A DNA stretch of 64,000 nt from a virus (IMGVR_UViG_3300022752_000030:1-64000), one strand, 5' to 3'. Counted from the stretch's first letter, positions 16,977 to 59,514 are shown. Numbers and translations are program-made. Notes: generated by a model not told the origin, from the sequence alone.

Positions 16977-17190
16977 TTTTTATTTCTATCCAGTTATTAT
17001 AAATTTTATGACGACTATAACTTTTAGTTTTTATTTCAAGTTCTTTAAAATGATCATTGATATACTTCGCTAAGCTTTCATCATCTATTCCATGGACTTT
17101 TATGAATAAAATTTCAGGAGTTATTTTAACTCCCATAGGTACACCAAAATTCTCTTTTATCAATTTAACAATATCCAGATATCTCGTCAC
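16951..17190 (-). CDS. Hypothetical protein
   Basis: ORF track; overlaps both neighbours. Confidence 0.5.
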   Translation of the reverse strand: MTRYLDIVKLIKENFGVPMGVKITPEILFIKVHGIDDESLAKYINDHFKELEIKTKSYSRHKIYNNWIEIKNVDNKLSS

Positions 17191-17555
17191 TTTGGCAATT
17201 TCCTACTTCCCATTGGCACCATAATTGGATTATATCTTTTTTTCTTTCTAGGATGGACACCAGGTTCACCACCTTTTCCTCCAGTCCCTGCAATTGCACC
17301 CGAACCCACGACATTTGCAGGTCCTGCAACAGCAGCTGCACCATCTTCTTGAACAGCTTCTTCTGAAGTGGATCTCCAACCGCCACCCATTGATTTATAT
17401 TTTTTAGATGCCCAAGCATTAGCATAAGCGGAAGGATAAACAGCAAATTTAGATTTAGCTGCAGCTTTAGCACGAGCCCACTTTTCAGGTTGTGTAGGCT
17501 TATTCTTTTCATCTAAGATTTCGGCTTCATTTATAAATTCAATGAATGTTTTCAT
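17187..17555 (-). CDS. Putative internal head protein (capsid-targeting N-terminus)
   Basis: MKTFIEFINE; basic YPSAYANAW...GGGWR domain. Confidence 0.65.
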   Translation of the reverse strand: MKTFIEFINEAEILDEKNKPTQPEKWARAKAAAKSKFAVYPSAYANAWASKKYKSMGGGWRSTSEEAVQEDGAAAVAGPANVVGSGAIAGTGGKGGEPGVHPRKKKRYNPIMVPMGSRKLPK

Positions 17556-18056
17556 TTATTTTGTCCTAACATTTATTGCTTTGCCACGGCGTTCTGGATT
17601 TGGATCTTCACGGCGTTTTCTTTGTGCTGCTTTTGCTCTACCTTCTTTACCTAAAGCTTGTGCTTTGGCCTGAGGTAAGCACTTTGGTTTACCTTCTCCT
17701 GGTTCTCTAGCACAATCTCCTTTGATATTGCCCTTTGTGTCCATTCGAACCCATTTTTGTTTAAACCATTGTCTTAAATCTTCATTAATCCAATCATCTG
17801 GAGTTTTTCCATGTTTAGATTTAAAATCATTGTGTAACTCTTTGCCTGTTATTCCGTGGTCTTTAGATATTTTCATCATCAACTTATCGATTGTGTCATA
17901 GTCATGACTATCTAATTGTTTTAAACCATCTTCTAATTCTTTTACATGATCTTCTTTTCTACAACTACCAGCAGTATATGCTGGTTTACCAGGAACTGGT
18001 TTAAATCCTGACCAACATCTGCCCTTTTCGTTGATAAAAGACTTAAAAGATTTCAT
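17556..18056 (-). CDS. Putative internal head protein (capsid-targeting N-terminus)
   Basis: MKSFKSFINE; CWSG..GSC module; EDLRQWFKQKWV..KPKCLP basic module. Confidence 0.65.
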   Translation of the reverse strand: MKSFKSFINEKGRCWSGFKPVPGKPAYTAGSCRKEDHVKELEDGLKQLDSHDYDTIDKLMMKISKDHGITGKELHNDFKSKHGKTPDDWINEDLRQWFKQKWVRMDTKGNIKGDCAREPGEGKPKCLPQAKAQALGKEGRAKAAQRKRREDPNPERRGKAINVRTK

Positions 18057-21870: not shown

Positions 21871-22284
21871 TTACCATGCTTTGCATGACCAGTATCTTGC
21901 TTTTGTTCTTGGACCGGGTGTTGCACAACGGTGTCGTGCTCTAAAACTTCTACGGCGAGCAGGATTATGTTTTTTAATTGTCATATTCTTGTCACCAAAA
22001 TTAACTTTTACAACTCTACCTGACGGTGATTTTACAAAAACTTTAGATTTTTTAACATCACCTTTCATTGGCTTACCCAAAGGAACTTTACGTCCTTGAT
22101 ATTCAGCTTCATCTAAAGGTTCTGATTCCAAATCCCAATCGATAGAATCGATTAATTGTTCTTCGTCACCATCAAAATTAAATTCATCGGAAGAAACTTC
22201 TTCCCACAATTGTGAAACTTCCTCTTGAAGATATGCAGGTTCATCCGAATATTCTTCTGATACAAATTGACTAAAAAATTTCAT
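21871..22284 (-). CDS. Putative internal head protein: acidic pro-region plus basic domain
   Basis: MKFFSQFVSE; LDEAEYQGRKVPLGKP..RRRSFRARHRC..ARYWSCKAW. Confidence 0.7.
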   Translation of the reverse strand: MKFFSQFVSEEYSDEPAYLQEEVSQLWEEVSSDEFNFDGDEEQLIDSIDWDLESEPLDEAEYQGRKVPLGKPMKGDVKKSKVFVKSPSGRVVKVNFGDKNMTIKKHNPARRRSFRARHRCATPGPRTKARYWSCKAW

Positions 22285-22285
22285 T

Positions 22286-24172
22286 TTAAATTCTCTTTTT
22301 CTTTTTAATTATGATTCCAATATTTTTATCTTGATCCTTATATGATTGCATGGGTTCTTTATTACTTGCACCACCCAATGTTCCACCTACTCCCATATCT
22401 ACTGCACCCGGATCATCAATTGCTTCTTTTACTTTTTTTCTAAAATTTTTAAAATCTTTTTGTTCTCTGTATGTGACATCGCCTAATCCTGACATTGGGT
22501 ATACTGTTCCCTGTTGGCGTGTGTCAAATTCTGGTCCTATTCCAGAAACATTCCTCATTCTTTGATTTACTGTCGGTGAATCTGATGTTTTTATTCTTTT
22601 GGCTTTGTCTTTCTCTTTGTCTTTTCTGAAGTTGGATTCTTTTGGTTCGGGGAAGACTTTAATGCTGGGACCTTTTTCTTCACTATACGTTTTGAAGGTG
22701 TAGGTTTTTGTTCTTTTTGGAGCATCCCATTTGATGTTGTCGGCGTTGGAATCTCCTGCTCTGTTGTCTGGAGTGATGTCGTCTGGACCGGCTGCTCTTT
22801 CAACTGAGTTGTTTCTTTTGTAAACTCCTGCGGAAGCTTCTCGCTTTTCGTTGAGTTTTTGAATAAATTTAGAATTTTTCTTAACATTATCTTCCTTAAA
22901 CAAATATTTAACCGATTCATTTATATTTAATTTTCCGTGATTTTCCATCCAAGAAAATGCAACATCAGTATAATTTCTTTCGTCAATAAATCTATTTATT
23001 ATTTGATAAGTGTCTGTAATATCTTCTTCAATTGATTCGAGTGTTGCACTATTATCAAAATTAATAAATTTTGCAAAATTTTGACGGTAAGATTCTTTGC
23101 TAGCCTGAGCTAGTTCCCACTTTTCAAATCTAACTGACTCCGAAACCATTTTAGCTAAACTTTTATTTCTGATTTTACTGGTTTCATTTGTCGTGTCAAC
23201 AAAAATCATGATCGTATCGTAACCAAGTTCTTCAAGTTCTTCTTTGATTGTGATCATTTTCGAATGATCGTCCGCAGGTCCATTAATAATTAAAGGACCT
23301 CTAGATCGAATCGCTTCTCTGCGATAATCTGTTGTTTTTTCGGATAACTTTTGTTTATCCATTAAATAATCAAAAGCTTGAATTGAGTTTAATTCGACAG
23401 AACGGTTTTCAGCGATTGCTTCTCGAATTATAATATCTTTTCCTGATCCTGGACCACCGGTAACGAAAATAGCTTTAAATAAACCTCTATTATAGTCCTC
23501 ATGTAATCCCATACCTTTGCGTGTATCGTGCATTAACTCTTTGGCATGTTCATCGGACACATGAGAAGGAACACCTTTTCTAAACTCCTTAAAGTCTTTA
23601 TTTTTGGCATGTTCACGCATTTTGCTTCCGGACATACCCTCTGTGCCTTCGGCATCAGGATCACGATGGCCGGCTGAATGAATTTTTATACTCTTAAAAT
23701 GATATTCTCCGTGTCCTGCTTTAACACCATTATACTTATGTAATAGATCATGCATCTCTTTAACACGATCCGATCCGACGACAACGTGAAGGTGAGTTAC
23801 ACCACTCTTATATGCCGATACCGCATGGTGTAATATGGTTGGTTTTTCTTTTGTAGCGGCAGTAATTTTTGGTTTAGTTGTGATGCGTTGCAGTGATGAT
23901 TTTATTGAAACAGCTTCTTCTATTTTATTAGGTGAAGCCATATATCTAGTTAGATGCTTGATTTTTTGTTCAGAACTTAATGGATTTTTCTTACTATCTT
24001 GTGAGTGAGAAACGATAACTTCATATGATGCATTATGTTTTTTGGCAATCTCTTTAACTTTATTGATTAGCTTTAAATGTCCAGTCGTTGGAGGATTCAT
24101 GCGACCAAATGTGATCACATGATGTTTCTCATATTCTTCTTGTTCTTTGACTAATTCTAAAAATGACTTCAT
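22286..24172 (-). CDS. Cytidylyltransferase/NMNAT-like domain fused to P-loop kinase-like domain, with capsid-targeting N-terminus
   Basis: MKSFLELVKE; TFGRMNPPTTGH, KNPL, VVGSDRV, RDPDAEG..GMSGSKMR; then AIFVTGGPGSGKD. Confidence 0.8.
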   Translation of the reverse strand: MKSFLELVKEQEEYEKHHVITFGRMNPPTTGHLKLINKVKEIAKKHNASYEVIVSHSQDSKKNPLSSEQKIKHLTRYMASPNKIEEAVSIKSSLQRITTKPKITAATKEKPTILHHAVSAYKSGVTHLHVVVGSDRVKEMHDLLHKYNGVKAGHGEYHFKSIKIHSAGHRDPDAEGTEGMSGSKMREHAKNKDFKEFRKGVPSHVSDEHAKELMHDTRKGMGLHEDYNRGLFKAIFVTGGPGSGKDIIIREAIAENRSVELNSIQAFDYLMDKQKLSEKTTDYRREAIRSRGPLIINGPADDHSKMITIKEELEELGYDTIMIFVDTTNETSKIRNKSLAKMVSESVRFEKWELAQASKESYRQNFAKFINFDNSATLESIEEDITDTYQIINRFIDERNYTDVAFSWMENHGKLNINESVKYLFKEDNVKKNSKFIQKLNEKREASAGVYKRNNSVERAAGPDDITPDNRAGDSNADNIKWDAPKRTKTYTFKTYSEEKGPSIKVFPEPKESNFRKDKEKDKAKRIKTSDSPTVNQRMRNVSGIGPEFDTRQQGTVYPMSGLGDVTYREQKDFKNFRKKVKEAIDDPGAVDMGVGGTLGGASNKEPMQSYKDQDKNIGIIIKKKKRI

Positions 24173-25170
24173 TCTTCCGACTTCTTAAATGTTAATGGTT
24201 TATGACCTAATGTTTTGGCCATTGCGTGCAGGTGTTCATCATGATCCAAATCGACATGACTTTTATCTGCATGTTTGACCATAAATTGTATTGTACGTTT
24301 TTTTGGATCGGATGTTTTTTGTCTGACTCTCCATTGGCCTTTACCTGTCAATTCAGGCAATCCGTGGCCAGTCTTATCTTTTTCACCAACTCTATATGTT
24401 CCGTGTTTACCGACTTGTAGGACATCAACATGATGATCCTTTAAGTAAGCATTTGCTGGTTTCAAATCATCATGTTCAAAGTTTACATTTTTAGCCAAAG
24501 GACCACCAGGTACCAATCCAGTAGGTTTATGGTGTTCGTTCATGTGGTCTATGATACCTTTTGACTCGATGTGTGCAGCATAACCTGGTCTGTTTTTTCT
24601 ATTTTCTTCAGGAATGTGCCAACCACCCTTCTTTTCATCATAAGCAATAGTTAATTGACCAAAAGCAGCAGTTTTTCCTGCTTTTGTTTCGCCCTGTAAC
24701 TCACCTTCGTTGTGTACTTCGCCTTTATGTTTCGTATTTAATTTTTTATTAACCAAATTAAAGTCGTTACCACTTGTAAATCCAGCAGCTTCACCGTGCA
24801 TCAAACCATGGTCTTTTAATCTTTTTACGAAATTTTGTTCATATTCAAAACCTTTATTAGATTTTTTTTCTCCTGGTTTTAAAATTTTCGAAACAGGTAT
24901 TACGTGTTTTCTTCTCGTAACATCATCCGTAGCATGAACGTAATATTTTCCATCAATCAATTCTGTCTTGTGTAATTTTAATTTTGATCCGGATGGAACA
25001 TCTTCGTGATCTTTACCCATAGTGTGAGTATAATCTTTTGATCCTAGATGCGGCATTACATATTTTCCCAAATGTCTTTCTTTGTCGATACCTGCACCTT
25101 TAATGAAACCCACACCTTCAGCTTCATTAATCATTTCACATTCATTTAAGTGTTGTAAAAATGTTTTCAT
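24169..25170 (-). CDS. Putative PD-(D/E)xK-like nuclease with capsid-targeting N-terminus
   Basis: MKTFLQHLNE; GFEYE..AAG..D..GETK..FGQL; similar to 32675-33424. Confidence 0.55.
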   Translation of the reverse strand: MKTFLQHLNECEMINEAEGVGFIKGAGIDKERHLGKYVMPHLGSKDYTHTMGKDHEDVPSGSKLKLHKTELIDGKYYVHATDDVTRRKHVIPVSKILKPGEKKSNKGFEYEQNFVKRLKDHGLMHGEAAGFTSGNDFNLVNKKLNTKHKGEVHNEGELQGETKAGKTAAFGQLTIAYDEKKGGWHIPEENRKNRPGYAAHIESKGIIDHMNEHHKPTGLVPGGPLAKNVNFEHDDLKPANAYLKDHHVDVLQVGKHGTYRVGEKDKTGHGLPELTGKGQWRVRQKTSDPKKRTIQFMVKHADKSHVDLDHDEHLHAMAKTLGHKPLTFKKSEE

Positions 25171-26339
25171 TTTCTAACCTTTAATAAATTTGCTCTTGCA
25201 AATTCTTGGCGATCAACTAATTTAGTAGGTTCACCTGCATGGTTAATAACAAAGCCTTCTGGACCAGTTCTTTTGCCATCTATATGATGTTCTAGTCCAC
25301 CTTCATGTTGATTTAGTGTGTGTACCAAGACATTTTTAGCTTGTTGTAAATGATGGTGCATCTTCAGGAGATTTTCATAATGATCTTTGTTTTTCTCAAT
25401 ATGACTTAGATGACTATTTGCTTCCGATTGTTTTCTAGCTTGTCCTGCCGGCGTTTTTAATTTTGAAGCTGATTTATTGTATTGATTTTGTATGTGTTTT
25501 TTCAGTCCTTCAGCAGAAGGAACTTCACCAGTTCTTACTGTATGGTTAATGTAAGTCGAAAGGTGTCCAGCTTCACCTCGATGTGGCTCAGTTGATTTGT
25601 ACATTGTGCCTTTATGCTCATCATGTATTTTTCTTGCGGCTGACATGTGGTCATTGAATTTTTCTTGATCCGATTCTGAATAATGTACGTTTTTCGTATC
25701 GTGTTCGGCTGATTTGTGCCAAACATCAGGATGCTGATAAAATTTATGCATGTCGGGATGAGGATCGGCACCCATCGTACTCAGGTTTTTTCCGTGATAC
25801 TGGGTGTGTACAATTACACCAAGTTTTGCTCTCCTTATTTTATCAGCCTCATCACCTTTTGCGGTATATGTGATTGTATTTGGAGTAAATGATACACCTT
25901 TTTTTGTTTCTTTTTTGTCACCATCAGAAAACATTAGGTCACCTTGGTAAACTCCTGACTTCGGTGCAATCTTTTTGAGATGATTTAGTCCTGCGTGTAA
26001 TTTGTCCATCAAACCGGGTGCGTGTCCGTGGTTTTTAACTATATCTGCATGTGTATAGTTTATTTTTGGATTTACATTGAAAGCTGATTTTGATGCAACA
26101 AAGAATTTACCGTTTTCTGGATTATGACCAAAAACAACGGCAGGAGATCCATCATATTTCATCGTCAAATGAGAACTGTTGCCACCTGACTTAATATGTT
26201 CGTGAGCTTGATTTAACGCATTGTAAGTGTGTTCAAAACCTTTTGATCCGTGAAGTAAAGGCCGGTCTTCAGCATGATGTATATGCTTAAGTTTTTCACC
26301 TTCAGTTTCTTCAATCAAAAAATTTAAAAAAGATTTCAT
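25167..26339 (-). CDS. Ligase-like covalent nucleotidyltransferase (DUF6267-like) with capsid-targeting N-terminus
   Basis: MKSFLNFLIE; TMKYDGSPA (motif I), YQGDLMF, PEGFVI (IV), KLVDR (V). Confidence 0.7.
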   Translation of the reverse strand: MKSFLNFLIEETEGEKLKHIHHAEDRPLLHGSKGFEHTYNALNQAHEHIKSGGNSSHLTMKYDGSPAVVFGHNPENGKFFVASKSAFNVNPKINYTHADIVKNHGHAPGLMDKLHAGLNHLKKIAPKSGVYQGDLMFSDGDKKETKKGVSFTPNTITYTAKGDEADKIRRAKLGVIVHTQYHGKNLSTMGADPHPDMHKFYQHPDVWHKSAEHDTKNVHYSESDQEKFNDHMSAARKIHDEHKGTMYKSTEPHRGEAGHLSTYINHTVRTGEVPSAEGLKKHIQNQYNKSASKLKTPAGQARKQSEANSHLSHIEKNKDHYENLLKMHHHLQQAKNVLVHTLNQHEGGLEHHIDGKRTGPEGFVINHAGEPTKLVDRQEFARANLLKVRK

Positions 26340-26445
26340 CTTACCTCTTAGAATACAACACACTTTGGTTGTCCATGAAGTTATTTATAATACTTTTTGA
26401 TTTATATCACAAATTGTGAAAATATTGTGTCTGATATATAACAAT

Positions 26446-27141
26446 TTAGTAATGTTCGATTTCACCGTTTCCGGCTAACCAACCCATGCAGTGAATTTTT
26501 TCAAATTCCACCAAATAATTTTTTGGAATATTCACGAAATGTGCGTGTTCTGTATCCAGTACATTTACAATCGACATGTTTTTATTCAGTACACTCAGAT
26601 AAGTGTCAATTAGTGAAGGACAAAAAGAATACATTCTTGTAATAAACAAGTGGGTTGCATCATGTTTTATATCTCCCATCCAAGTTGGTATTCTTTTTTT
26701 AAATACAAATTTTCCAAAGAGGTCATCATAATCATTGATATTGAAATTATCATCAAGTTCCGATCTTCCTGAAAATTTAAATACTCTTTTTACAGAATTT
26801 AAAACATTACTCACATTGGGATTATTCTTTAGTGTTTGTAATGTTGCAAACAACAATGCATTTTCGGCATGACTTTTTTGACCATTTGAAGTGTAATGTT
26901 TTGTTGCTGGTTCTTCACTCAAATCAAAATATAGATTAGAATTTTGACTTAGAACTTTTTTTTCAAAATCACTTAATGGAGAAATAGATGTGTCCGATAA
27001 CAATATGATAGCATCAGGTACTTTTTTTCGAATTGATCTGAGCGTAAAAAGTGTCTGTGCAAATCTTTGTTCAGGAGAAAATACTCCTATTTTTGGTTTT
27101 ATTGAAGAAGTGACAATAAATAAATTTTTGTCAGGAATCAT
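26446..27141 (-). CDS. Glycosyltransferase-like hypothetical protein
   Basis: FIVTS..RFAQT..T..SIR, FKFSGR pattern; last gene of the sugar cluster. Confidence 0.5.
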   Translation of the reverse strand: MIPDKNLFIVTSSIKPKIGVFSPEQRFAQTLFTLRSIRKKVPDAIILLSDTSISPLSDFEKKVLSQNSNLYFDLSEEPATKHYTSNGQKSHAENALLFATLQTLKNNPNVSNVLNSVKRVFKFSGRSELDDNFNINDYDDLFGKFVFKKRIPTWMGDIKHDATHLFITRMYSFCPSLIDTYLSVLNKNMSIVNVLDTEHAHFVNIPKNYLVEFEKIHCMGWLAGNGEIEHY

Positions 27142-28160
27142 AAGTAATTTTCCAAGTCATCGGAATCTCTAAAAATATTAATTGCTTCTGCTCTCGGAAA
27201 AGGATTTGATTTATTAAAATCATTAATCAATATTCTTCTTGAATTTTGCAATCCTGATATTAATGTGTAATTTTTAAATCCCAATTCATTTAATAATGAA
27301 CAGCTCCTCTCGTCATATATTTTACCTCTTGAAGTTGTAAATATAAATTGAGCTCCATTTGATTGCATTTCCAAAAGTTTTTTTACATTTTTAGTGAGTG
27401 GTGTGATTTTATGGTCATAAGAGTTTTCACCCACACGACTTTGTGCTTTCACTATCGTTCCGTCTATATCACAAAAAATTACAGGTTTATCATTATATTC
27501 AAACCAGTCTTTTGCGGTACCGACATCAATATAATTCTTTACTGCTTTTTCAGTAAAAATATTTTTATTATTGATGCATCTTCCAATTACATCAGATACA
27601 AATATTTCTCGTTCCTGTGAAATGTCCTCAAAAGCGTTTTTGTACAACAATGCACTTTCGAATTTATAACCACCAACACAAAAAGTATCAGACACAACTT
27701 TCTTTTCTATGATATCGTTAATTATACCTTGTTCATTGGAAATTGTAAAGCTTTTGGATGATAGTTTCTTCAAAATTTCATGTTCGGAAATTTTAGAAAC
27801 ACAAACGTAATTTCCTGGAGAAATTTCATGTTCAAAAAAACTATCACAATCTTTTATAAGTATTTCTTCATTCGTAAGACCAGACTTTTGAATTATTTGA
27901 TATACTGTATCGGCTGGACCTTTTGTTGGTTTTTCTAAAACAACAATTTTTATTTTGTCACCAAATTCATATCGAATGAATTCAGATGCATGATATTTTT
28001 CATCATGTTCTTTTAAAATACCAACAGTAATTGAATTTTGTAAATAAGGACGTAAAGAATTTTTCAACATTAAATCGTGTTTGTAATCATACAACAAATA
28101 TTTTGGTTTCATTTCGGGAAACCTTGTTGATAATCCGGCAGCAGGTACAATTATTTCCAT
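27138..28160 (-). CDS. Sugar-phosphate nucleotidyltransferase fused to HAD phosphatase
   Basis: IIVPAAGLSTRFP..PK, TKGPADT, DCD; C-terminal FCDIDGTI..TTSR..RILIND. Confidence 0.85.
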   Translation of the reverse strand: MEIIVPAAGLSTRFPEMKPKYLLYDYKHDLMLKNSLRPYLQNSITVGILKEHDEKYHASEFIRYEFGDKIKIVVLEKPTKGPADTVYQIIQKSGLTNEEILIKDCDSFFEHEISPGNYVCVSKISEHEILKKLSSKSFTISNEQGIINDIIEKKVVSDTFCVGGYKFESALLYKNAFEDISQEREIFVSDVIGRCINNKNIFTEKAVKNYIDVGTAKDWFEYNDKPVIFCDIDGTIVKAQSRVGENSYDHKITPLTKNVKKLLEMQSNGAQFIFTTSRGKIYDERSCSLLNELGFKNYTLISGLQNSRRILINDFNKSNPFPRAEAINIFRDSDDLENYL

Positions 28161-28897
28161 AATCTTTTTATTTCTTTCATGATAAAGTTATAATTAAAAT
28201 CATTTTTCTTTGTGTGTAAATAAACTCTCAATAACATTAAAATTAATAAATTATTATCTTTTGCAATTTCGAATTTACTTAAAATTTGTTCTTGTAAATT
28301 TTTAAGTTTAACATCTATTCTTATCGAATCATTTCTCAAAAACCATTTACACTCTAAATCTTGTCTCATTTTTGCAATATCGAATATATATGAGTCATAT
28401 TCAACCTTGACAGCATCAATCATATAAAATTTATTTTTATTTGTGCCTATAATATTTTCAAGTGTCATATCACCATGATACATCGAACTCGGTAATATTT
28501 TTGGTAATCTTTCGATGAATTCTTCTTTATTGAAAGGTAAGTCATCATTTTGATCCATCCATTTTAGTTTTTCATTATAGACACCAGTGTAATCCTTCAT
28601 TACACTTTTTTTTGAAAAATTTTCCAATGTAGAAATAATAAAGTTAGACAAGTCCTCGATATTGTGATGAATTAGATAATTCTTCATATCCAGTCCATGG
28701 ATATATTCCATGTCTAATACATTATTTCCATAATTGTATATTTTAGGAACAGGATATCCAAAAGAATAAAGAGTGCTCAGTCTTTCTAAATTTCTTTCTA
28801 CATTATTGATTTTTCTTATAAACAATCCCCAGACATCTTCCATCAAGTATATTTGACTACCTGAATGTCCAGTTAATTCCTTTAGTGTTTTTTCCAT
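28151..28897 (-). CDS. APH/choline-kinase-like phosphotransferase
   Basis: GHSG, MEYIHG, HGDMTLENII, MID, DIAKMRQD. Confidence 0.82.
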   Translation of the reverse strand: MEKTLKELTGHSGSQIYLMEDVWGLFIRKINNVERNLERLSTLYSFGYPVPKIYNYGNNVLDMEYIHGLDMKNYLIHHNIEDLSNFIISTLENFSKKSVMKDYTGVYNEKLKWMDQNDDLPFNKEEFIERLPKILPSSMYHGDMTLENIIGTNKNKFYMIDAVKVEYDSYIFDIAKMRQDLECKWFLRNDSIRIDVKLKNLQEQILSKFEIAKDNNLLILMLLRVYLHTKKNDFNYNFIMKEIKRLWK

Positions 28898-29559
28898 TGG
28901 TCATAGTCATTACGTATGAGTGAATGCCATGTTCCGTTATGTGGTCCAGGAGGAAACGGATTATTCATGTTCACATATATTAGATTATTGCCGTACAAAT
29001 TATGTTCGTATAAATTTGCCTTCATCATGTCTTCACCGATAAATTGATATCCAGAATCATAATACTTATCTATGTTCAAATAAGTTGACATGTATTTCAT
29101 CATTATTTCTTTTGATCCAAAAGCAAATTGGTCGTTTCCAAAATCTCTTTCGGGAGTCATACGACAATTTGGTATATACAATTTTTTATTTTCTAAATCA
29201 GCGAAAGGTATTTTAACATTTAAAGCATAATCCGTTCTCGATTTGATCACCCAATCATAATCCCCCTCAACTAATTGACTACATTTATACATCGAGTATA
29301 ACATGTTATATGTAAATCTAGGAGGATGTTTTAATAGATTTGGTGTATTTTTATATTGACTGTCGTAGTTACCAACTAGAGGTGTTTCAAACTCATATTT
29401 TTTTGGATTGTAAATATTAATAAGATTTTCACTTAAAACAAATTTCCAAGAATGAATGTAGACATCGACATTGTAATGGGAAAAAAGATTATTTTTATAA
29501 TACTTATAACCTTCTTCGAATGATCTTGCTTGACCACATAAGCATAAAGCGATTTTCAT
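28882..29559 (-). CDS. Putative glycosyltransferase-like protein
   Basis: MKIALCLCGQAR, DVYIHSW, YDWVIKSRTD, NDQFAFG. Confidence 0.6.
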   Translation of the reverse strand: MKIALCLCGQARSFEEGYKYYKNNLFSHYNVDVYIHSWKFVLSENLINIYNPKKYEFETPLVGNYDSQYKNTPNLLKHPPRFTYNMLYSMYKCSQLVEGDYDWVIKSRTDYALNVKIPFADLENKKLYIPNCRMTPERDFGNDQFAFGSKEIMMKYMSTYLNIDKYYDSGYQFIGEDMMKANLYEHNLYGNNLIYVNMNNPFPPGPHNGTWHSLIRNDYDQWKKH

Positions 29560-30245
29560 TTTTGTAAAAATACCGATAATTTTTCTGTTGTCAATTGAGG
29601 TACATTATTATTAAAAATATTTCTCAATAACATCATGTGAGGACAATACCTCTGGTCTTTATGTATTTTAATATTATTCTCACCGTAAAATCTTACATTT
29701 CTAAGATAGTCTTCAAATTCCGGTTCAAATTGAGTTGAGTGCAATTGTTCATATTTGTCATATATAAAATAATATTTTGCGTATTTAAAGGGCATAATCG
29801 CAAAAATATCCGATATTAAATTATAAGACTCTTGCAATGGAGTAAGAATCGTATTGATTTCTTCAAATTTAAATACTTGTGTAAAATTTACATCATAGCG
29901 ACAATAAACAAGTTCATCATATTCTTGATCAATTAAATCAAAAGCTTGTTTTCTACTAAAATTCATGGAAGCATTTCCTGAAATTTTATCAATCGATAAA
30001 GGTTTCGGATTTGCTTGTAGAATTCTTTTTTCCATTTCAAAAAATATTTGTTGATAATTTCTCCAATCTTCAACTAAGATTTTTTTAGGATTTAACTTAT
30101 CAATTATATTTTGTTGTTCATATTCATGAGTTAACCACAAATGACAATACACATCAAGTTCATTGATGTCAATAAATTTTTTAATGTTATCGCACGTTTG
30201 GTCAAAAGTCCTATAGTGACCAGATAAAATAATGCATTTTTTCAA
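29556..30245 (-). CDS. Putative glycosyltransferase-like protein, paralog of 28882-29559
   Basis: IILSGHYRTF, DVYCHLW, YD..YCRYD, SDIFA. Confidence 0.55.
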   Translation of the reverse strand: MKKCIILSGHYRTFDQTCDNIKKFIDINELDVYCHLWLTHEYEQQNIIDKLNPKKILVEDWRNYQQIFFEMEKRILQANPKPLSIDKISGNASMNFSRKQAFDLIDQEYDELVYCRYDVNFTQVFKFEEINTILTPLQESYNLISDIFAIMPFKYAKYYFIYDKYEQLHSTQFEPEFEDYLRNVRFYGENNIKIHKDQRYCPHMMLLRNIFNNNVPQLTTEKLSVFLQK

Positions 30246-30254
30246 GATAAAATC

Positions 30255-30824
30255 TCACTTATACCAATACCAAACGTCACATTCGGTTGTTAAAATTTCT
30301 TTATTAACTTTATTTGCAAATTCATTAGCTGCACGATTTACACCTTCGATTGCAGTAAAATCATGGCCTGAGAATATTCCACCTGGTTTTAAAAACTTAT
30401 AATAGTTTTCACAATCTTTACTCAACTGTTCGTATGTATGAAGACCATCGATGAAAATAAAATCAAATTGATTTTCAGAAAAAAGATCAACCGCATCATC
30501 TGATGTTTTACGAATTAAAGAAAATCGATTCGAATATCCTTTCAATCTTTCCACCATTTGTTGATAAACGTTTTCTCTTTCGTTTAAGGAATTTCCATTC
30601 CAATCAATATAGTTTTCATATGGATCAATTGAAGTTAAATTCAATGTCGGATTTGAATCCAATAAAAAATTAGTTGTATCACCAATGTCACAACCAATTT
30701 CTAATCCTACTGGATTATTAATATCTTTAATCAGATATCCAAGACCGTAACCAGAACACTTGAATGTTCTCTGTACATTAAAGGATTGGTTTTCCGTATT
30801 AATTACAATTACATCATCACTCAT
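30255..30824 (-). CDS. Class I SAM-dependent methyltransferase (Methyltransf_24-like)
   Basis: LEIGCDIG, IDPY, FDFIFIDGLHTYE, LKPGGIFSGHD. Confidence 0.88.
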   Translation of the reverse strand: MSDDVIVINTENQSFNVQRTFKCSGYGLGYLIKDINNPVGLEIGCDIGDTTNFLLDSNPTLNLTSIDPYENYIDWNGNSLNERENVYQQMVERLKGYSNRFSLIRKTSDDAVDLFSENQFDFIFIDGLHTYEQLSKDCENYYKFLKPGGIFSGHDFTAIEGVNRAANEFANKVNKEILTTECDVWYWYK

Positions 30825-30827
30825 TTT

Positions 30828-31688
30828 TTACACCCTGTAAACAAAGAAATTATTTGGATCCTCTTGATTGAATTTTTTCATTATCAATTCTTTCCATAGA
30901 GGTACACGATCATATTGGTGAACAATACAAAATGGTTCTCCTGTATGTGTTTTAACCAATCCACTTTCAAAATCAAATGCGGGCTCAGGCTCTGTTAGAA
31001 AAGGTCTGAATGCTTCTATTTTTGAAGGATCGCCTGTTGTTCCTAATTGTACTGCCCAGCCGTCTTGTTGTTTAGTAAACAGAACTTTATCTTTATACGG
31101 TTGTGTTTGTATTGAAACGTTGTAAACAGCTTGATCAACTATGGGAATGGGTCTATTTGTAGAATTGATGAATATGTTTAGTACTAAGTCTTTAACATAC
31201 TCTGCTGTTCCTCCGATTGTACCAACATTATAAATTTCGTTACCTACAAACAAAAGATAAAAATATGGACCGTATGTTTCCATCAAATTTTGATTTCCCC
31301 AAGGCTCATATTTGTATGATATACTCTCAGAACCAGCTACTAGGGTTTTATTTTCTGGTAAATTTTTCTTAATCCATTCGATTGGATCTTTTTGAAAATA
31401 TACGTCCTTGACATCAGTTGTTACTACGTAGTCATAGTCTTTCCAGGTATCTTTAAGATAATCATAAATTGCAAGAAATCTTGCAACATGAATTGGAGCC
31501 TCTACCTTCAACATGTCAACAATTTTAAAATTTCTTTTGATCAATTCATCACGTGTTTCTTGTGATGCATTACCAACAACCATCACTTTGTCGCCTTCAA
31601 AACCACACTCATCAATAGACTCAACCCAAGGTTTGAGTTGATTGTAGGTATAGTTTGTAAAAGCACCGATAATTAAATTTTTCGCCAT
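30828..31688 (-). CDS. GT-A fold glycosyltransferase
   Basis: RF..Y, TTDVKDVYFQ, NVGTIGG, DQAVYN, IVHQYDR. Confidence 0.7.
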   Translation of the reverse strand: MAKNLIIGAFTNYTYNQLKPWVESIDECGFEGDKVMVVGNASQETRDELIKRNFKIVDMLKVEAPIHVARFLAIYDYLKDTWKDYDYVVTTDVKDVYFQKDPIEWIKKNLPENKTLVAGSESISYKYEPWGNQNLMETYGPYFYLLFVGNEIYNVGTIGGTAEYVKDLVLNIFINSTNRPIPIVDQAVYNVSIQTQPYKDKVLFTKQQDGWAVQLGTTGDPSKIEAFRPFLTEPEPAFDFESGLVKTHTGEPFCIVHQYDRVPLWKELIMKKFNQEDPNNFFVYRV

Positions 31689-32383
31689 GGTAAAACTCCA
31701 TTATGTTTTCTTTTCATTTCTTCATTACCTCTCAAAAAGAATTCCGATGTAACGGAACCCGGATTTCCATCAACCCTATAGTTAACAGTATATTCTCCAG
31801 TGCAATCAAATTTTTTAAAGTGGTTTGATATTGTGTTGAAGAAAACTCTATCTTGTCCCCAACCGCCATGCCAGACACTAGCTAATTTTATCACAATATC
31901 AGATTTTACACAATAACAATTAGTATCTATGTGATGAAGTCCGTGATAAGTTTGCCATTTACCCAGAGATTCACAATCATCATTGCAAACATATTCTCCT
32001 TCTTTGTTGGCAACTTTTCGCAAAGAATATGACCAATCTAAATTATTTTTTTCTATTGTTTCAACACAACTCTGTACGTGATTTTTTTCAAACCAATTAT
32101 CTTGATCTAGATATAAAACATATTTTGTATTGATTAGATGTGAGAACGCAGCATAAACTCTATGTCCATAAAATCCATTAGCACCAACGTTAATAGGCAG
32201 AGAACATATTTTTAAATTTTTGTTACCCATATAATCGCTGGCAATAGTTTTAGCTTTTGCTGAAAAATTATCTCCATCGATAACCAAATAACAAATAGTT
32301 TCATATGTTTGATTCAACACACTCTCGATTGCATTACGCAATTCGCTAGCACCAGTTGTTGGTACGATCACAGTTGCAGTCAT
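31673..32383 (-). CDS. Glycosyltransferase family 2
   Basis: VIVPT, SVLNQTY, VIDG, LDQDN (DxD), DR. Confidence 0.85.
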   Translation of the reverse strand: MTATVIVPTTGASELRNAIESVLNQTYETICYLVIDGDNFSAKAKTIASDYMGNKNLKICSLPINVGANGFYGHRVYAAFSHLINTKYVLYLDQDNWFEKNHVQSCVETIEKNNLDWSYSLRKVANKEGEYVCNDDCESLGKWQTYHGLHHIDTNCYCVKSDIVIKLASVWHGGWGQDRVFFNTISNHFKKFDCTGEYTVNYRVDGNPGSVTSEFFLRGNEEMKRKHNGVLPWRKI

Positions 32384-32674: not shown

Positions 32675-33424
32675 TTAGGAGAAACAATTTAAATTTAAAT
32701 CTTTTTTGATGATATTAACACTTTTACCGTCTACTGGTGCAATGTTAAAAGGAGATTTTTTACTTGATGGAATTGAAAATTGCATTTCAAATGTAAATTG
32801 ATAGTTATCACTTCCTTTATATTGAACTCTTGCTCTGTATGTTGCTTTAGCTGAAGAACCAAATCTAGGCACATCTTTTAATTTTAAAGGATTTTTAGAT
32901 CCTAACAGATAGAAACCGTGTGTACCTACGTTAACATAATAAGTATCTTTTCGATTGTAATATTGTTCAATTTTTGTTGATGGTATTTCACCTCGAATAT
33001 CATGAAATGTATCTCTATCTCTTTCGTACTGTTGTTTTTTTGTTAGTTTACCGGCTGTTGCTTCCCACAAATCATCTTTCTCTCTTTTAAATGGAATTTC
33101 TTTCCATTCTTTTTTTATAATATCAAATAATCCAACTTCATCGGCTAAATCTTTAATAAACATTTTTTCAGTATCATCATCTTTGATATCACCAAATTTC
33201 CAAGGATTGGACTTATCTTTCGTGTCATATTTCAATACAAGAGAACCAGCTGAAGCTGCTGTTATTTTTAACTCACATCCAGCTTTAATTTTTTTGTGTT
33301 CCAACATTAAATCTGGCTGATCACTACCAGCACCAGCAGGAGTAAAATTTTTAGGTACCAGGCCCATAGGTTTTAAAATGTTTGCTGCATTTTTTTCATA
33401 TTCAAAACCTTGTTGTGCCGCCAT
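32675..33424 (-). CDS. Putative PD-(D/E)xK restriction-like endonuclease
   Basis: GFEYE..QPDLML..CELK catalytic pattern; late promoter GATAAATA at 33443-33450. Confidence 0.6.
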   Translation of the reverse strand: MAAQQGFEYEKNAANILKPMGLVPKNFTPAGAGSDQPDLMLEHKKIKAGCELKITAASAGSLVLKYDTKDKSNPWKFGDIKDDDTEKMFIKDLADEVGLFDIIKKEWKEIPFKREKDDLWEATAGKLTKKQQYERDRDTFHDIRGEIPSTKIEQYYNRKDTYYVNVGTHGFYLLGSKNPLKLKDVPRFGSSAKATYRARVQYKGSDNYQFTFEMQFSIPSSKKSPFNIAPVDGKSVNIIKKDLNLNCFS

Positions 33425-33445: not shown

Positions 33446-34552
33446 TTATCTGATAATTTGTATGTCTTTACCTGAAGTCCAAACCTCAAGTTCGGAACGC
33501 AAGCGGTTTTCAACTTTTAATGTTTCATATCTATTTGACGCTTTATTTTTCCACCATTCTATTACATTTTCTAATTCAAATTTATCATAAGTTTCATCTT
33601 TGATTAGTTTGTCTGTCTTGCAACAAACATAGTCTATCATGTTTTTATAACCGTAATGTGAAATGTAATATCTTTTTTGTTCGGTTAGTTTTTTTGCATC
33701 ATCTATTGTTCTTTGAAACACTTCGGCTTCAACATCACCTTTTAGTGCAGATTTTGTTAAAGCAATAATTTTCATTGTTGTTTTCAATTTTTTGCTCGAT
33801 GAATCAGCATCAACAATATCACCAACTTTACTTTCAACAAAATTACGTAAATCTTCGTAGGGTTTTCCGTGCATCATGGGAATGAAATCACTTTCGGTGA
33901 GACCCTTATATCTTATAAAAGGCTTCATGCCATCATATTGTGAAACTTGTTTTGAACTACCATAAAGACTTGTAGTTTCAAATAAACAAAGATTCATATT
34001 ATATTTTTTATTGACAATTTCACGCACAGCATGTGAACAACAAATTGCAGCCAAAAGTTTACCACCAAGATAATTATAACCAAAAGGTTGTGATGGTACA
34101 ATTACAAATCCCATCATAGACGAATCGTTAAATCTTTTGGACCATTCAGGTTTTTGTGTAAACACTTGTCCAAGCATTTCATTTCGAGGTTTCATGTTGA
34201 TTACTGGTGAACCAAGTCTAATGAATCCAACGAACTTTCCTGTGTTCTTTTCTCTGACAGCAAGCCTGATTTGTCGACCAACAGGTGAGATATTAATATG
34301 TGACGATGTGATATTGAGTAATGTTTCCCAAGTTTCTTGTGGTATTTCACAAACTTCAAAATCCATATCTTTCGGATGAATTGAGAAATCCGAAAATAAA
34401 TCTTCTTCTATAGGAAACAAAGGATTTGAAGGCAAATCAGCCAAAGATGCCAATTTTTGATCCCGCATATAATCATCAACACGATTGAAACTCCCAAAAT
34501 ATTTTTTAAAAACCGATGAACAATGAAGCGCATCTTCTTTTGTCAACATCAT
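33446..34552 (-). CDS. DUF4338 (DruA-like) protein
   Basis: GFIRLGSP, IVPSQPFGYNYLGGKLLA, ETTSLYG...SQYDG. Confidence 0.78.
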   Translation of the reverse strand: MMLTKEDALHCSSVFKKYFGSFNRVDDYMRDQKLASLADLPSNPLFPIEEDLFSDFSIHPKDMDFEVCEIPQETWETLLNITSSHINISPVGRQIRLAVREKNTGKFVGFIRLGSPVINMKPRNEMLGQVFTQKPEWSKRFNDSSMMGFVIVPSQPFGYNYLGGKLLAAICCSHAVREIVNKKYNMNLCLFETTSLYGSSKQVSQYDGMKPFIRYKGLTESDFIPMMHGKPYEDLRNFVESKVGDIVDADSSSKKLKTTMKIIALTKSALKGDVEAEVFQRTIDDAKKLTEQKRYYISHYGYKNMIDYVCCKTDKLIKDETYDKFELENVIEWWKNKASNRYETLKVENRLRSELEVWTSGKDIQIIR

Positions 34553-59085: not shown

Positions 59086-59514
59086 TTATTGTTTTTTATT
59101 CATGATGTCACCAATTCTATTTCTAAGTTCAGTTGTGCTGAAACTGTGTTTTCTAGAATTGAAATAGACTTCCATCATTAAATTTGAACCAGTATATTGT
59201 TTACCTCTGTATTCTTCTCCTATGATTCTAACATCAATAGGATAGGATGTCAAGATATCCATCAATTCTTTTTCTGTGGCATATGGTATAATTTCATCAA
59301 CATATTTACAAGCATCAACTTGCACGTATCTTTCGAAAACGGATTGTATAGGTTTATTTTTCCATTCTCTGTCGATTGTAGGATCAGTTTGCAAACCTAC
59401 AATCAAATATTCACATTGCGTCTTTGCTTCTTTAAGCATCATTACGTGGCCCGCATGAAACAAATCAAACGCACTTGCAACAAAACCTATTTTTTTACCT
59501 TTTATGTTTGTCAT
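59086..59514 (-). CDS. Glycerol-3-phosphate cytidylyltransferase-like
   Basis: AFDLFHAGH, LIVGLQTD, ER, YVDE, R.HSFSTT.LR. Confidence 0.88.
   Translation of the reverse strand: MTNIKGKKIGFVASAFDLFHAGHVMMLKEAKTQCEYLIVGLQTDPTIDREWKNKPIQSVFERYVQVDACKYVDEIIPYATEKELMDILTSYPIDVRIIGEEYRGKQYTGSNLMMEVYFNSRKHSFSTTELRNRIGDIMNKKQ

Follow-up and report, generated by a model that had tools for sequence, protein, structure and literature searches.

The first 64,000 nucleotides of the virus record IMGVR_UViG_3300022752_000030 (hereafter the window, 64 kb out of a 111-kb IMG/VR record of 67% completeness) encode, on the minus strand between positions 22286 and 26339, a module built around two enzymes: a ligase-like protein of the Pfam family DUF6267, and a 628-amino acid (aa) protein in which a HIGH-superfamily nucleotidyltransferase domain is joined to a P-loop kinase domain. 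DUF6267 is constantly partnered by the HIGH transferase and not by the kinase, which is a lineage-specific accessory. Both proteins start with a leader resembling the capsid targeting sequence (CTS) of bacteriophage T4 internal proteins, and by analogy with T4 we consider it probable that these enzymes are delivered by the capsid. Their function is a more tentative matter. The original prediction for this locus had described a virion-delivered kinase/ligase pair for RNA healing and sealing, perhaps with NAD synthesis; RNA repair or NAD rescue is plausible, and we lean toward the repair of nucleic-acid ends. The positions of the features are given in Table 1.

Table 1. Features of the DUF6267 module and of related genes in the window. 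Residue numbers refer to the protein named.
Feature	Position	Strand	Remarks
T4-type late-promoter consensus TATAAATA	26382..26389	-	~43 nt upstream of the DUF6267 start codon; AAGAGG ribosome-binding site after
DUF6267 protein, 390 aa	25167..26339	-	predicted ligase-like covalent nucleotidyltransferase (Pfam, conservation, model)
Parts of the DUF6267 protein			leader 1-10 MKSFLNFLIE; HxxHxED 19-25; motif I K61-YDG; motif III QGD 132-134; helical insert 222-342; motif IV EGFV 361-364; motif V K373
Lys61 codon, predicted nucleotidyl-accepting lysine of motif I	26157..26159	-	invariant in 73/73 aligned representatives
333-aa His-rich protein	24169..25170	-	CTS-like leader MKTFLQHLNE; ATGA-coupled to both neighbors
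Leader and HIGH-superfamily nucleotidyltransferase domain, residues 1-225	23498..24172	-	leader MKSFLELVKE; TTGH 29-32, SKKNPL 60-65, SGSKMR 181-186; ends at GLHE225
P-loop kinase domain, residues 226-412	22937..23497	-	Walker A GGPGSGKD 239-246; Arg-rich RREAIRxR, NGPADD, lid-like ESVRxxKW
Predicted disordered tail, residues 413-628	22289..22936	-	pLDDT <50; invariant motif TRQQGTVYPMSGLGDVTYRE, Lys-rich end, no histidine
137-aa protein	21871..22284	-	CTS-like leader MKFFSQFVSE; basic C-terminal domain; phrog_7595 (E 8e-12)
Two small leader-bearing genes	17187..17555, 17556..18056	-	starts MKTFIEFINE and MKSFKSFINE; putative head cargo

Both open reading frames (ORFs) and every motif quoted in the original prediction are present in the minus-strand translations. 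In the DUF6267 protein these are KYDG (residues 61–64), QGDLMF (132–137), EGFVI (361–365) and KLV (373–375), and in the 628-aa protein FGRMNPPTTGH (22–32), SGSKMR (181–186) and GGPGSGKD (239–246). The DUF6267 gene was taken to start at the ATG and not at the GTG at 26363 that the ORF list offers as an alternative: its homologues begin with MKSF and the AAGAGG ribosome-binding site lies before the ATG. The protein matches Pfam DUF6267 (PF19782) with 336.1 bits against a cut-off of 27 (E 4.5e-100), residues 18–386 aligning with positions 2–373 of the 376 in the profile, and a scan of 1.84 billion cluster representatives returned 2,077 relatives. In an alignment of 73 diverse members that are 32–71% identical to the query (alignment A2), K61 and K84 are invariant, while D63, G64, Q132, G133, D134, E361, G362, V364, K373 and R377 are at least 90% conserved, as are H19, H22 and D25 of an N-terminal HxxHxED motif. 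The residues of the HIGH, SxSKMR and Walker A motifs are likewise invariant or nearly so in 25 homologues of the 628-aa protein. Because they are conserved across homologues and accompanied by Pfam matches, the motifs of both proteins are more than chance occurrences.

An AlphaFold2 model of DUF6267 generated from alignment A2 (pLDDT 95, pTM 0.92) places the motifs in order on predicted strands, with QGD in 130–138, EGFV in 362–367 and K373 in 370–374. A Foldseek search of the PDB with this model returned ligases as top matches, all of them weak (best E 0.014). Ligases occupy the top 15 structural matches, among which RNA ligases rank above DNA ligases, and in the BFVD search viral RNA ligases come straight after the family's own members; the model and these searches together support the ligase-type fold that had been proposed for 25167–26339. 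The modeled chain contains no OB domain and ends 16 residues past motif V with a single helix. It is also predicted to carry a 120-residue helical module (222–342) between motifs IIIa and IV, which makes the motif spacing non-canonical, the last two strands (EGFV, K373) completing the nucleotidyltransferase core. Sequence-level methods gave no tie to known ligases: the single DUF6267 sequence had no match in the PDB, the A2 profile found no ligase there and only chance helical matches from the insert, and Pfam RNA_ligase (PF09414; Rnl2/REL1 type) had no match in the whole record, the DUF6267 gene included. Alignment of A2 by hhalign with T4 Rnl2, Rnl1 and DNA ligase was not significant; the register obtained with T4 Rnl1 (E 0.12) lays EGFV...K on EGYV...K of motifs IV/V. 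We therefore regard DUF6267 as a new, very divergent family of the superfamily, outside Rnl1–5. According to the model, it is a divergent ligase-type enzyme closest to the OB-less RNA ligases, a likeness that is structural only. Our confidence in the fold and family assignments of the proteins of the module is high. DUF6267 is not mentioned by any paper found in our literature search.

The OB-less ATP-dependent RNA ligases with which DUF6267 was compared are NgrRnl (Rnl5, 5cot), T. brucei REL1 (1xdn), T4 Rnl2 (1s68, 2hvq), T4 Rnl1 (9do4), the ligase domain of fungal Trl1 (6n0t, 9r3w) and archaeal Rnl3 (5d1o). DUF6267 has no sequence-level similarity to these enzymes by hidden Markov model (HMM), hhalign or Pfam RNA_ligase, and its helical module is located between motifs IIIa and IV whereas theirs follows the nucleotidyltransferase domain. 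The HxxHxED motif, the obligate HIGH-transferase partner and the capsid-targeting leader are further features that set it apart.

The distribution of the domains among relatives reveals a core different from the kinase/ligase pair of the original prediction. Among 44 DUF6267 representatives with a length of 470 aa or more, 36 carry the same HIGH transferase (E 1e-18 to 1e-84, HMM from alignment A1), fused in either domain order, and none has the P-loop domain. The conserved pair is thus the ligase-like protein and the HIGH transferase, and the kinase/ligase pair is not the core of the system. PHROG 455 covers both proteins, and isolate phage records counted by organism name are near-identical in number for the two families (468 versus 504). 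A transferase-kinase gene is located downstream of DUF6267 in all 42 close relatives with enough flanking sequence, and HTVC008M, DLP_6, Melnitz and S-SZBM1 have the DUF6267 and transferase genes next to each other. In HTVC008M, the P-loop kinase has a gene of its own, located ahead of the transferase, and its own leader, MIPFILKE. The extra modules fused to these enzymes vary among relatives, and include LysM, a Pol-beta nucleotidyltransferase (in one relative) and phrog_7595. Essentially every cultured T4-like cyanophage carries the module, as do pelagiphage HTVC008M, Methylophilales phages and thousands of metagenomic contigs; the word-indexed search alone gave more than 6,000 matches at E ≤0.001.

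Judged by gene content, the record itself is a T4-like myophage related to Kyanoviridae, the markers being a gp41-type helicase gene, a gp21-type protease gene and the tRNA genes. The window has a G+C content of ~33% and the minus strand carries nearly all of its genes. The isolates nearest in the genes of interest are Methylophilales phage Melnitz, Pelagibacter phage HTVC008M and T4-like cyanophages, with only 25–39% identity; metagenomic relatives number in the thousands and are closer, at 60–81% identity. Region 22286–26339 had no match in a nucleotide search of a phage collection. ARAGORN detects 17 tRNA genes in two clusters, the count given in the original prediction; the link that it drew between them and the module is conjecture.

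The joining of a HIGH-family nucleotidyltransferase to a P-loop kinase in 22286–24172 stands as first described. The HIGH domain (residues 14–225) passes PF01467 (CTP_transf_like) with 31.7 bits against a cut-off of 21 and TIGR00125 with 33.8 against 27.7. A substrate was also sought through NCBIfam and Pfam, where only superfamily-level models pass. The equivalogs of the nicotinamide mononucleotide adenylyltransferase (NMNAT) type fall below cut-off (TIGR00482, 19.2 versus 112; TIGR01526, 17.3 versus 341; PRK01153, 12.9 versus 127), and the models for phosphopantetheine adenylyltransferase (PPAT; 16.8 versus 103) and FAD-synthase-related proteins (18.8 versus 200) score like them. Since no equivalog model comes near its cut-off, the acceptor substrate is not readable from sequence. 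Fold matches of the kinase domain include the polynucleotide-kinase clade, O-phosphoseryl-tRNA kinase, the putative kinase 2rhm and Kti12, the best match being a tie between the polynucleotide-kinase clade and nucleoside monophosphate (NMP) kinases. In PDB sequence searches, the 628-aa protein and its profile (A1) yielded nothing but a weak adenylate-kinase P-loop match, and no phosphatase or cyclic phosphodiesterase domain was found in the protein. In addition to the invariant motif, which is 20 residues long, the predicted disordered tail (413–628) has a conserved DDPGAxDMGVGG stretch and a poly-Lys end; no match was found for its conserved motifs.

Several observations converge on capsid delivery. 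Six ORFs (17187–17555, 17556–18056, 21871–22284, 22286–24172, 24169–25170 and 25167–26339) start with the pattern MK[STF]F..[FLH][LIV].E; in the T4 record NC_000866, IPI starts with MKTFKEF, and IPII and IPIII start with MKTYQEFIAE. In T4, proteins that are otherwise unrelated enter the prohead core by means of the CTS (PMC3012670). A gp21-type prohead protease (Peptidase_S77, E 1.8e-38) is encoded at 66065–66517 of the record, just past the window. Only 2 exact matches to TATAAATA occur in the window, compared to 7.8 expected; with no overall enrichment of the motif, what is informative is its position alone. Two homologues of the transferase have been detected by liquid chromatography–mass spectrometry (LC-MS) in CsCl-purified virions: cyanophage S-SZBM1_140 (PMC9146016), which is 38% identical to the protein of the window (E 8e-32), and S-CREM2 gp154 (PMC10665884). 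Both are leader-bearing (MRFRQFIIEA and MKNFSSFLTE, respectively). The T4-type leader, the gp21-type protease, the late promoter and the homologues found in virions thus bear out the shared capsid-targeting motif of the original prediction.

The resemblance extends to the organization of the T4 IPI, IPII, IPIII and Alt genes, which share with this locus a leader of the form MK(T/S)F..F(I/L).E ending in Glu, a gp21-type protease, an upstream late promoter and a hypervariable cargo cluster. Unlike the T4 proteins, the cargo consists here of large nucleotide-handling enzymes, not of small basic proteins or an ADP-ribosyltransferase. Measurements of packaging exist only for the transferase homologues of two cyanophages, and we infer it by analogy for the present phage. 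A nearly invariant GLHE (residues 222–225, positions 23498–23509) falls exactly at the boundary between the transferase and the kinase, and GLHE225 fits the (L/I)xE rule of the T4 gp21 prohead protease. This location, along with the separate, leader-bearing kinase of HTVC008M, suggests that the 628-aa fusion would be cut into separate enzymes in the head.

Two facts argue against packaging: the DUF6267 homologue of S-SZBM1 has no leader and is not among the 30 virion proteins detected (PMC9146016), and the authors of the virion studies warn that abundant proteins may co-purify. The N-terminal motif could then be a habit of the lineage, for instance a translation-initiation or folding element, and the enzymes would be cytoplasmic late in infection. 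Consistent with this, 12 of 113 DUF6267 representatives have no N-terminal extension, and the leaderless S-SZBM1 copy can be taken to show that the enzyme works without the tag. We nevertheless find this reading very unlikely given that the motif reproduces T4 IPI–III nearly residue for residue and ends in the Glu of the protease, that it occurs on six clustered and otherwise unrelated genes, that both virion-detected homologues bear it, and that the matching protease is encoded by the phage.

In the explanation that we favor, the module is a late-expressed enzyme set that would be loaded into the phage head. By analogy with the T4 internal proteins, the CTS would dock each protein in the prohead core; the gp21-type protease would remove the leader after Glu and would probably also cut the 628-aa protein at GLHE225, between transferase and kinase, and the mature enzymes would be ejected into the cell together with the DNA. 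DUF6267 is predicted to form a covalent Lys61–NMP intermediate. The core would be the two-enzyme unit of DUF6267 and the HIGH-superfamily adenylyltransferase, to which the P-loop kinase would have been added in this lineage, and its job would concern nucleic-acid ends, most probably those of broken RNA, right after injection. 5′-OH ends would be phosphorylated by the kinase, then adenylylated and sealed by the ligase-like enzyme. The HIGH transferase would either supply the nucleotide donor, by synthesis or regeneration, or act on a phosphate-bearing end to activate it. We favor this reading because of the fold of DUF6267, the polynucleotide-kinase-like domain and the occasional fusion to a Pol-beta nucleotidyltransferase. 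With catalysis and substrate both inferred, we hold RNA or nucleic-acid end repair as a tentative account of the function of the module, short of calling it probable.

Other evidence pulls away from end repair. Guanylate and adenylate kinases fall within 1 Z unit of the best fold match of the kinase domain, and the kinase is lineage-specific and absent from the DUF6267–transferase fusions. We know of no RNA-repair pathway in which the HIGH transferase, the conserved partner, has a role. No 2H phosphoesterase or Pnk-type phosphatase domain was found in the 111-kb record (67% complete); without a 2H-family enzyme for 3′-end healing, the T4 Pnk/Rnl1-style kit envisioned in the original prediction is incomplete. 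A HAD domain exists in another gene (27138–28160), fused to a sugar-type NTP transferase. Compared to T4 Pnk (1ltq) with Rnl1 and to C. thermocellum Pnkp (4gp6) with Hen1, the phosphatase, the cyclic phosphodiesterase and the Hen1-type methyltransferase were not found here, and only here is a HIGH transferase present as a conserved third component. The enzymes of the module also appear to be preloaded in the virion instead of being made early in infection.

It is conceivable, though doubtful, that DUF6267 and its HIGH partner form an unrecognized two-enzyme nucleotidyl-transfer machine in the capsids of most marine T4-like phages, in which the HIGH enzyme would make or recycle a dinucleotide-type donor for the ligase-fold enzyme to modify or join its target at DNA entry. 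If true, the ligase superfamily would gain a new branch with a novel cofactor logic, and a further class would be added to the injected counter-defenses. More generally, if the enzymes travel in the capsid, some very abundant ocean viruses deliver a ready-made nucleotide-handling kit along with their DNA, and the idea of T4 internal proteins extends from small inhibitors to whole enzyme pathways. Of the two halves of the module, one has kept its DUF label and the annotation of the other goes no further than "cytidyltransferase". The family is readily testable given its cultured hosts, its soluble-looking proteins and a clear catalytic lysine to mutate.

The architecture of the 628-aa protein invites another interpretation than end repair. 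The same order of HIGH transferase then P-loop domain is found in NadR (1lw7, 6gyf) and in ATP sulfurylase-APS kinase (fungal/Aquifex; 1m8p, 2gks), and eukaryotic CoA synthase, composed of PPAT and dephospho-CoA kinase, is another transferase–kinase fusion. Were the 628-aa protein NadR-like, its P-loop domain would phosphorylate nicotinamide riboside and its HIGH domain would adenylylate nicotinamide mononucleotide (NMN) to NAD+. DUF6267 would take its AMP from NAD+ in the manner of bacterial LigA, the released NMN being recycled by the fused transferase, or would merely benefit from restored NAD+, and the set, delivered with the DNA, would blunt NAD+-depleting defenses. The fusion of a dinucleotide-forming enzyme to a possible dinucleotide consumer makes chemical sense, sub-threshold NCBIfam matches include NadD, NadR and archaeal NMNAT, and a cyanophage homologue has been named an NMNAT homologue (PMC10665884). 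However, these NMNAT-type equivalogs reach only 13–19 bits against cut-offs of 112–341 and are equaled by FAD synthase and PPAT. Foldseek aligns NadR (6gyf, 1lw7) over both domains with an E-value of ~6e-7, but ATP sulfurylase-APS kinase aligns better (E 7e-9). Moreover, most family members have no kinase at all, and DUF6267 has no recognizable LigA-type Ia domain. The 628-aa protein further departs from NadR by having no helix-turn-helix domain, by equivalog scores far below every cut-off, by a kinase domain nearer in fold to polynucleotide and tRNA kinases, by its long conserved disordered C-terminal tail and by the dispensability of the kinase in most relatives. An NAD+-directed function is therefore unlikely in our view. 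The term "NMNAT-like" used in the original prediction is valid only at the superfamily level since the equivalog cut-offs for NMNAT, NaMNAT, PPAT and FAD synthase are all missed widely and no NadV was found in the record.

Also improbable is a nucleotidyl relay aimed at something other than broken nucleic acid. The HIGH enzyme would build an activated NMP-phosphate compound, and the Lys-NMP enzyme would pass the nucleotide or the compound on to a host protein, to the 5′ end of phage DNA or RNA as a cap-like mark, or to a small molecule, serving host takeover or protection of the incoming genome. Such a scheme would accommodate the obligate pairing of a ligase-like and a HIGH enzyme, which has no counterpart in known repair systems, and the oddities of DUF6267, namely a helical insert inside the nucleotidyltransferase domain, an HxxHxED motif that is at least 90% conserved and the missing OB domain. 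It is also compatible with the wide variation of the fused extra modules (LysM, Pol-beta nucleotidyltransferase, phrog_7595) and with the fact that other T4 head cargo (Alt, IPI) modifies host proteins or blocks restriction and carries out no RNA repair. On the contrary, all structural neighbors of DUF6267 are polynucleotide ligases, the added kinase is most like polynucleotide and tRNA kinases, and there is no positive evidence for a particular alternative target.

Use of DUF6267 for replication or repair in place of the T4 gp30 DNA ligase, an enzyme that these marine T4-like phages would lack, could explain that no PF01068-type ligase (DNA_ligase_A_M) was found in the record and that the module directly follows DNA polymerase, UvsX and gp41 helicase in HTVC008M, Melnitz and S-SZBM1, but it is very improbable given that the OB domain common to all known ATP-dependent DNA ligases is missing from DUF6267, that RNA ligases outrank DNA ligases among its structural matches, that a late promoter and a capsid-targeting leader are ill-suited to a replication enzyme, and that a gp30 homologue may sit elsewhere in a genome of which the record represents 67%.

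The genes from 26339 to 21871 are tightly packed, with ATGA overlaps or a single base between them. The DUF6267 and transferase genes are directly adjacent in 46 of 72 close relatives; in the others, the gap is filled by the 333-aa ORF or by unrelated ORFs of 350–430 aa, some of which have the same CTS-like leader. The gap is a variable slot for putative cargo, reminiscent of the hypervariable internal-protein loci of T-even phages. The 333-aa ORF, found in only 6 of 42 close relatives, has no Pfam, PHROG or NCBIfam match, its profile has no match in the PDB, and it shows no pairwise similarity to the ~350-aa genes upstream of DUF6267 in HTVC008M, DLP_6 and Melnitz. Its atlas matches are only viral hypothetical proteins, and the R.HinP1I lead scores only 0.80. 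A conserved E...D...ExK pattern (alignment A3) hints at a nuclease. A 249-aa ORF at 32675–33424 (minus strand) is a weak paralogue (23% identity over 236 residues, E 0.002) that has neither the leader nor the N-terminal 100 residues; a YE...D...K pattern is common to both ORFs. The 137-aa gene is likely a member of the module because phrog_7595 is fused between both enzymes in a 1246-aa relative (transferase 2–193, phrog_7595 749–828, DUF6267 853–1242).

Histidine accounts for 10.3% of the residues of DUF6267, 8.4% of the 333-aa ORF and 9.3% of the transferase domain, compared to 2.2% in the long minus-strand ORFs of the window. The enrichment stops abruptly at GLHE225, falling to 1.1% in the kinase domain and 0% in the tail. 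Across the 73 DUF6267 representatives histidine content ranges from 1.0% to 14.2%, and a relationship between enrichment and presence of the leader was rejected (no correlation; Mann-Whitney p = 0.41).

An inserted block of sugar- and phosphate-handling genes at 26446–32383 (minus strand) separates the replication genes from the DUF6267 module, and includes an NTP_transferase-HAD fusion (27138–28160) and a RIO/APH-like kinase (28151–28897). HTVC008M, Melnitz and S-SZBM1 have no counterpart of this block at the same position. Beside the gp41 helicase gene, 33446–34552 (minus strand) encodes a 368-aa protein matching the Pfam DruA family (Druantia defense protein) above the gathering score (E 6.8e-11); it was tested as a counterpart of the ~350-aa genes upstream of DUF6267 in other phages and proved not to be one. 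Finally, two more small CTP_transf_like genes, distinct from the capsid-tagged transferase, are located on the minus strand at 59086–59514 (E 3e-16) and 2613–2981 (E 1e-6).

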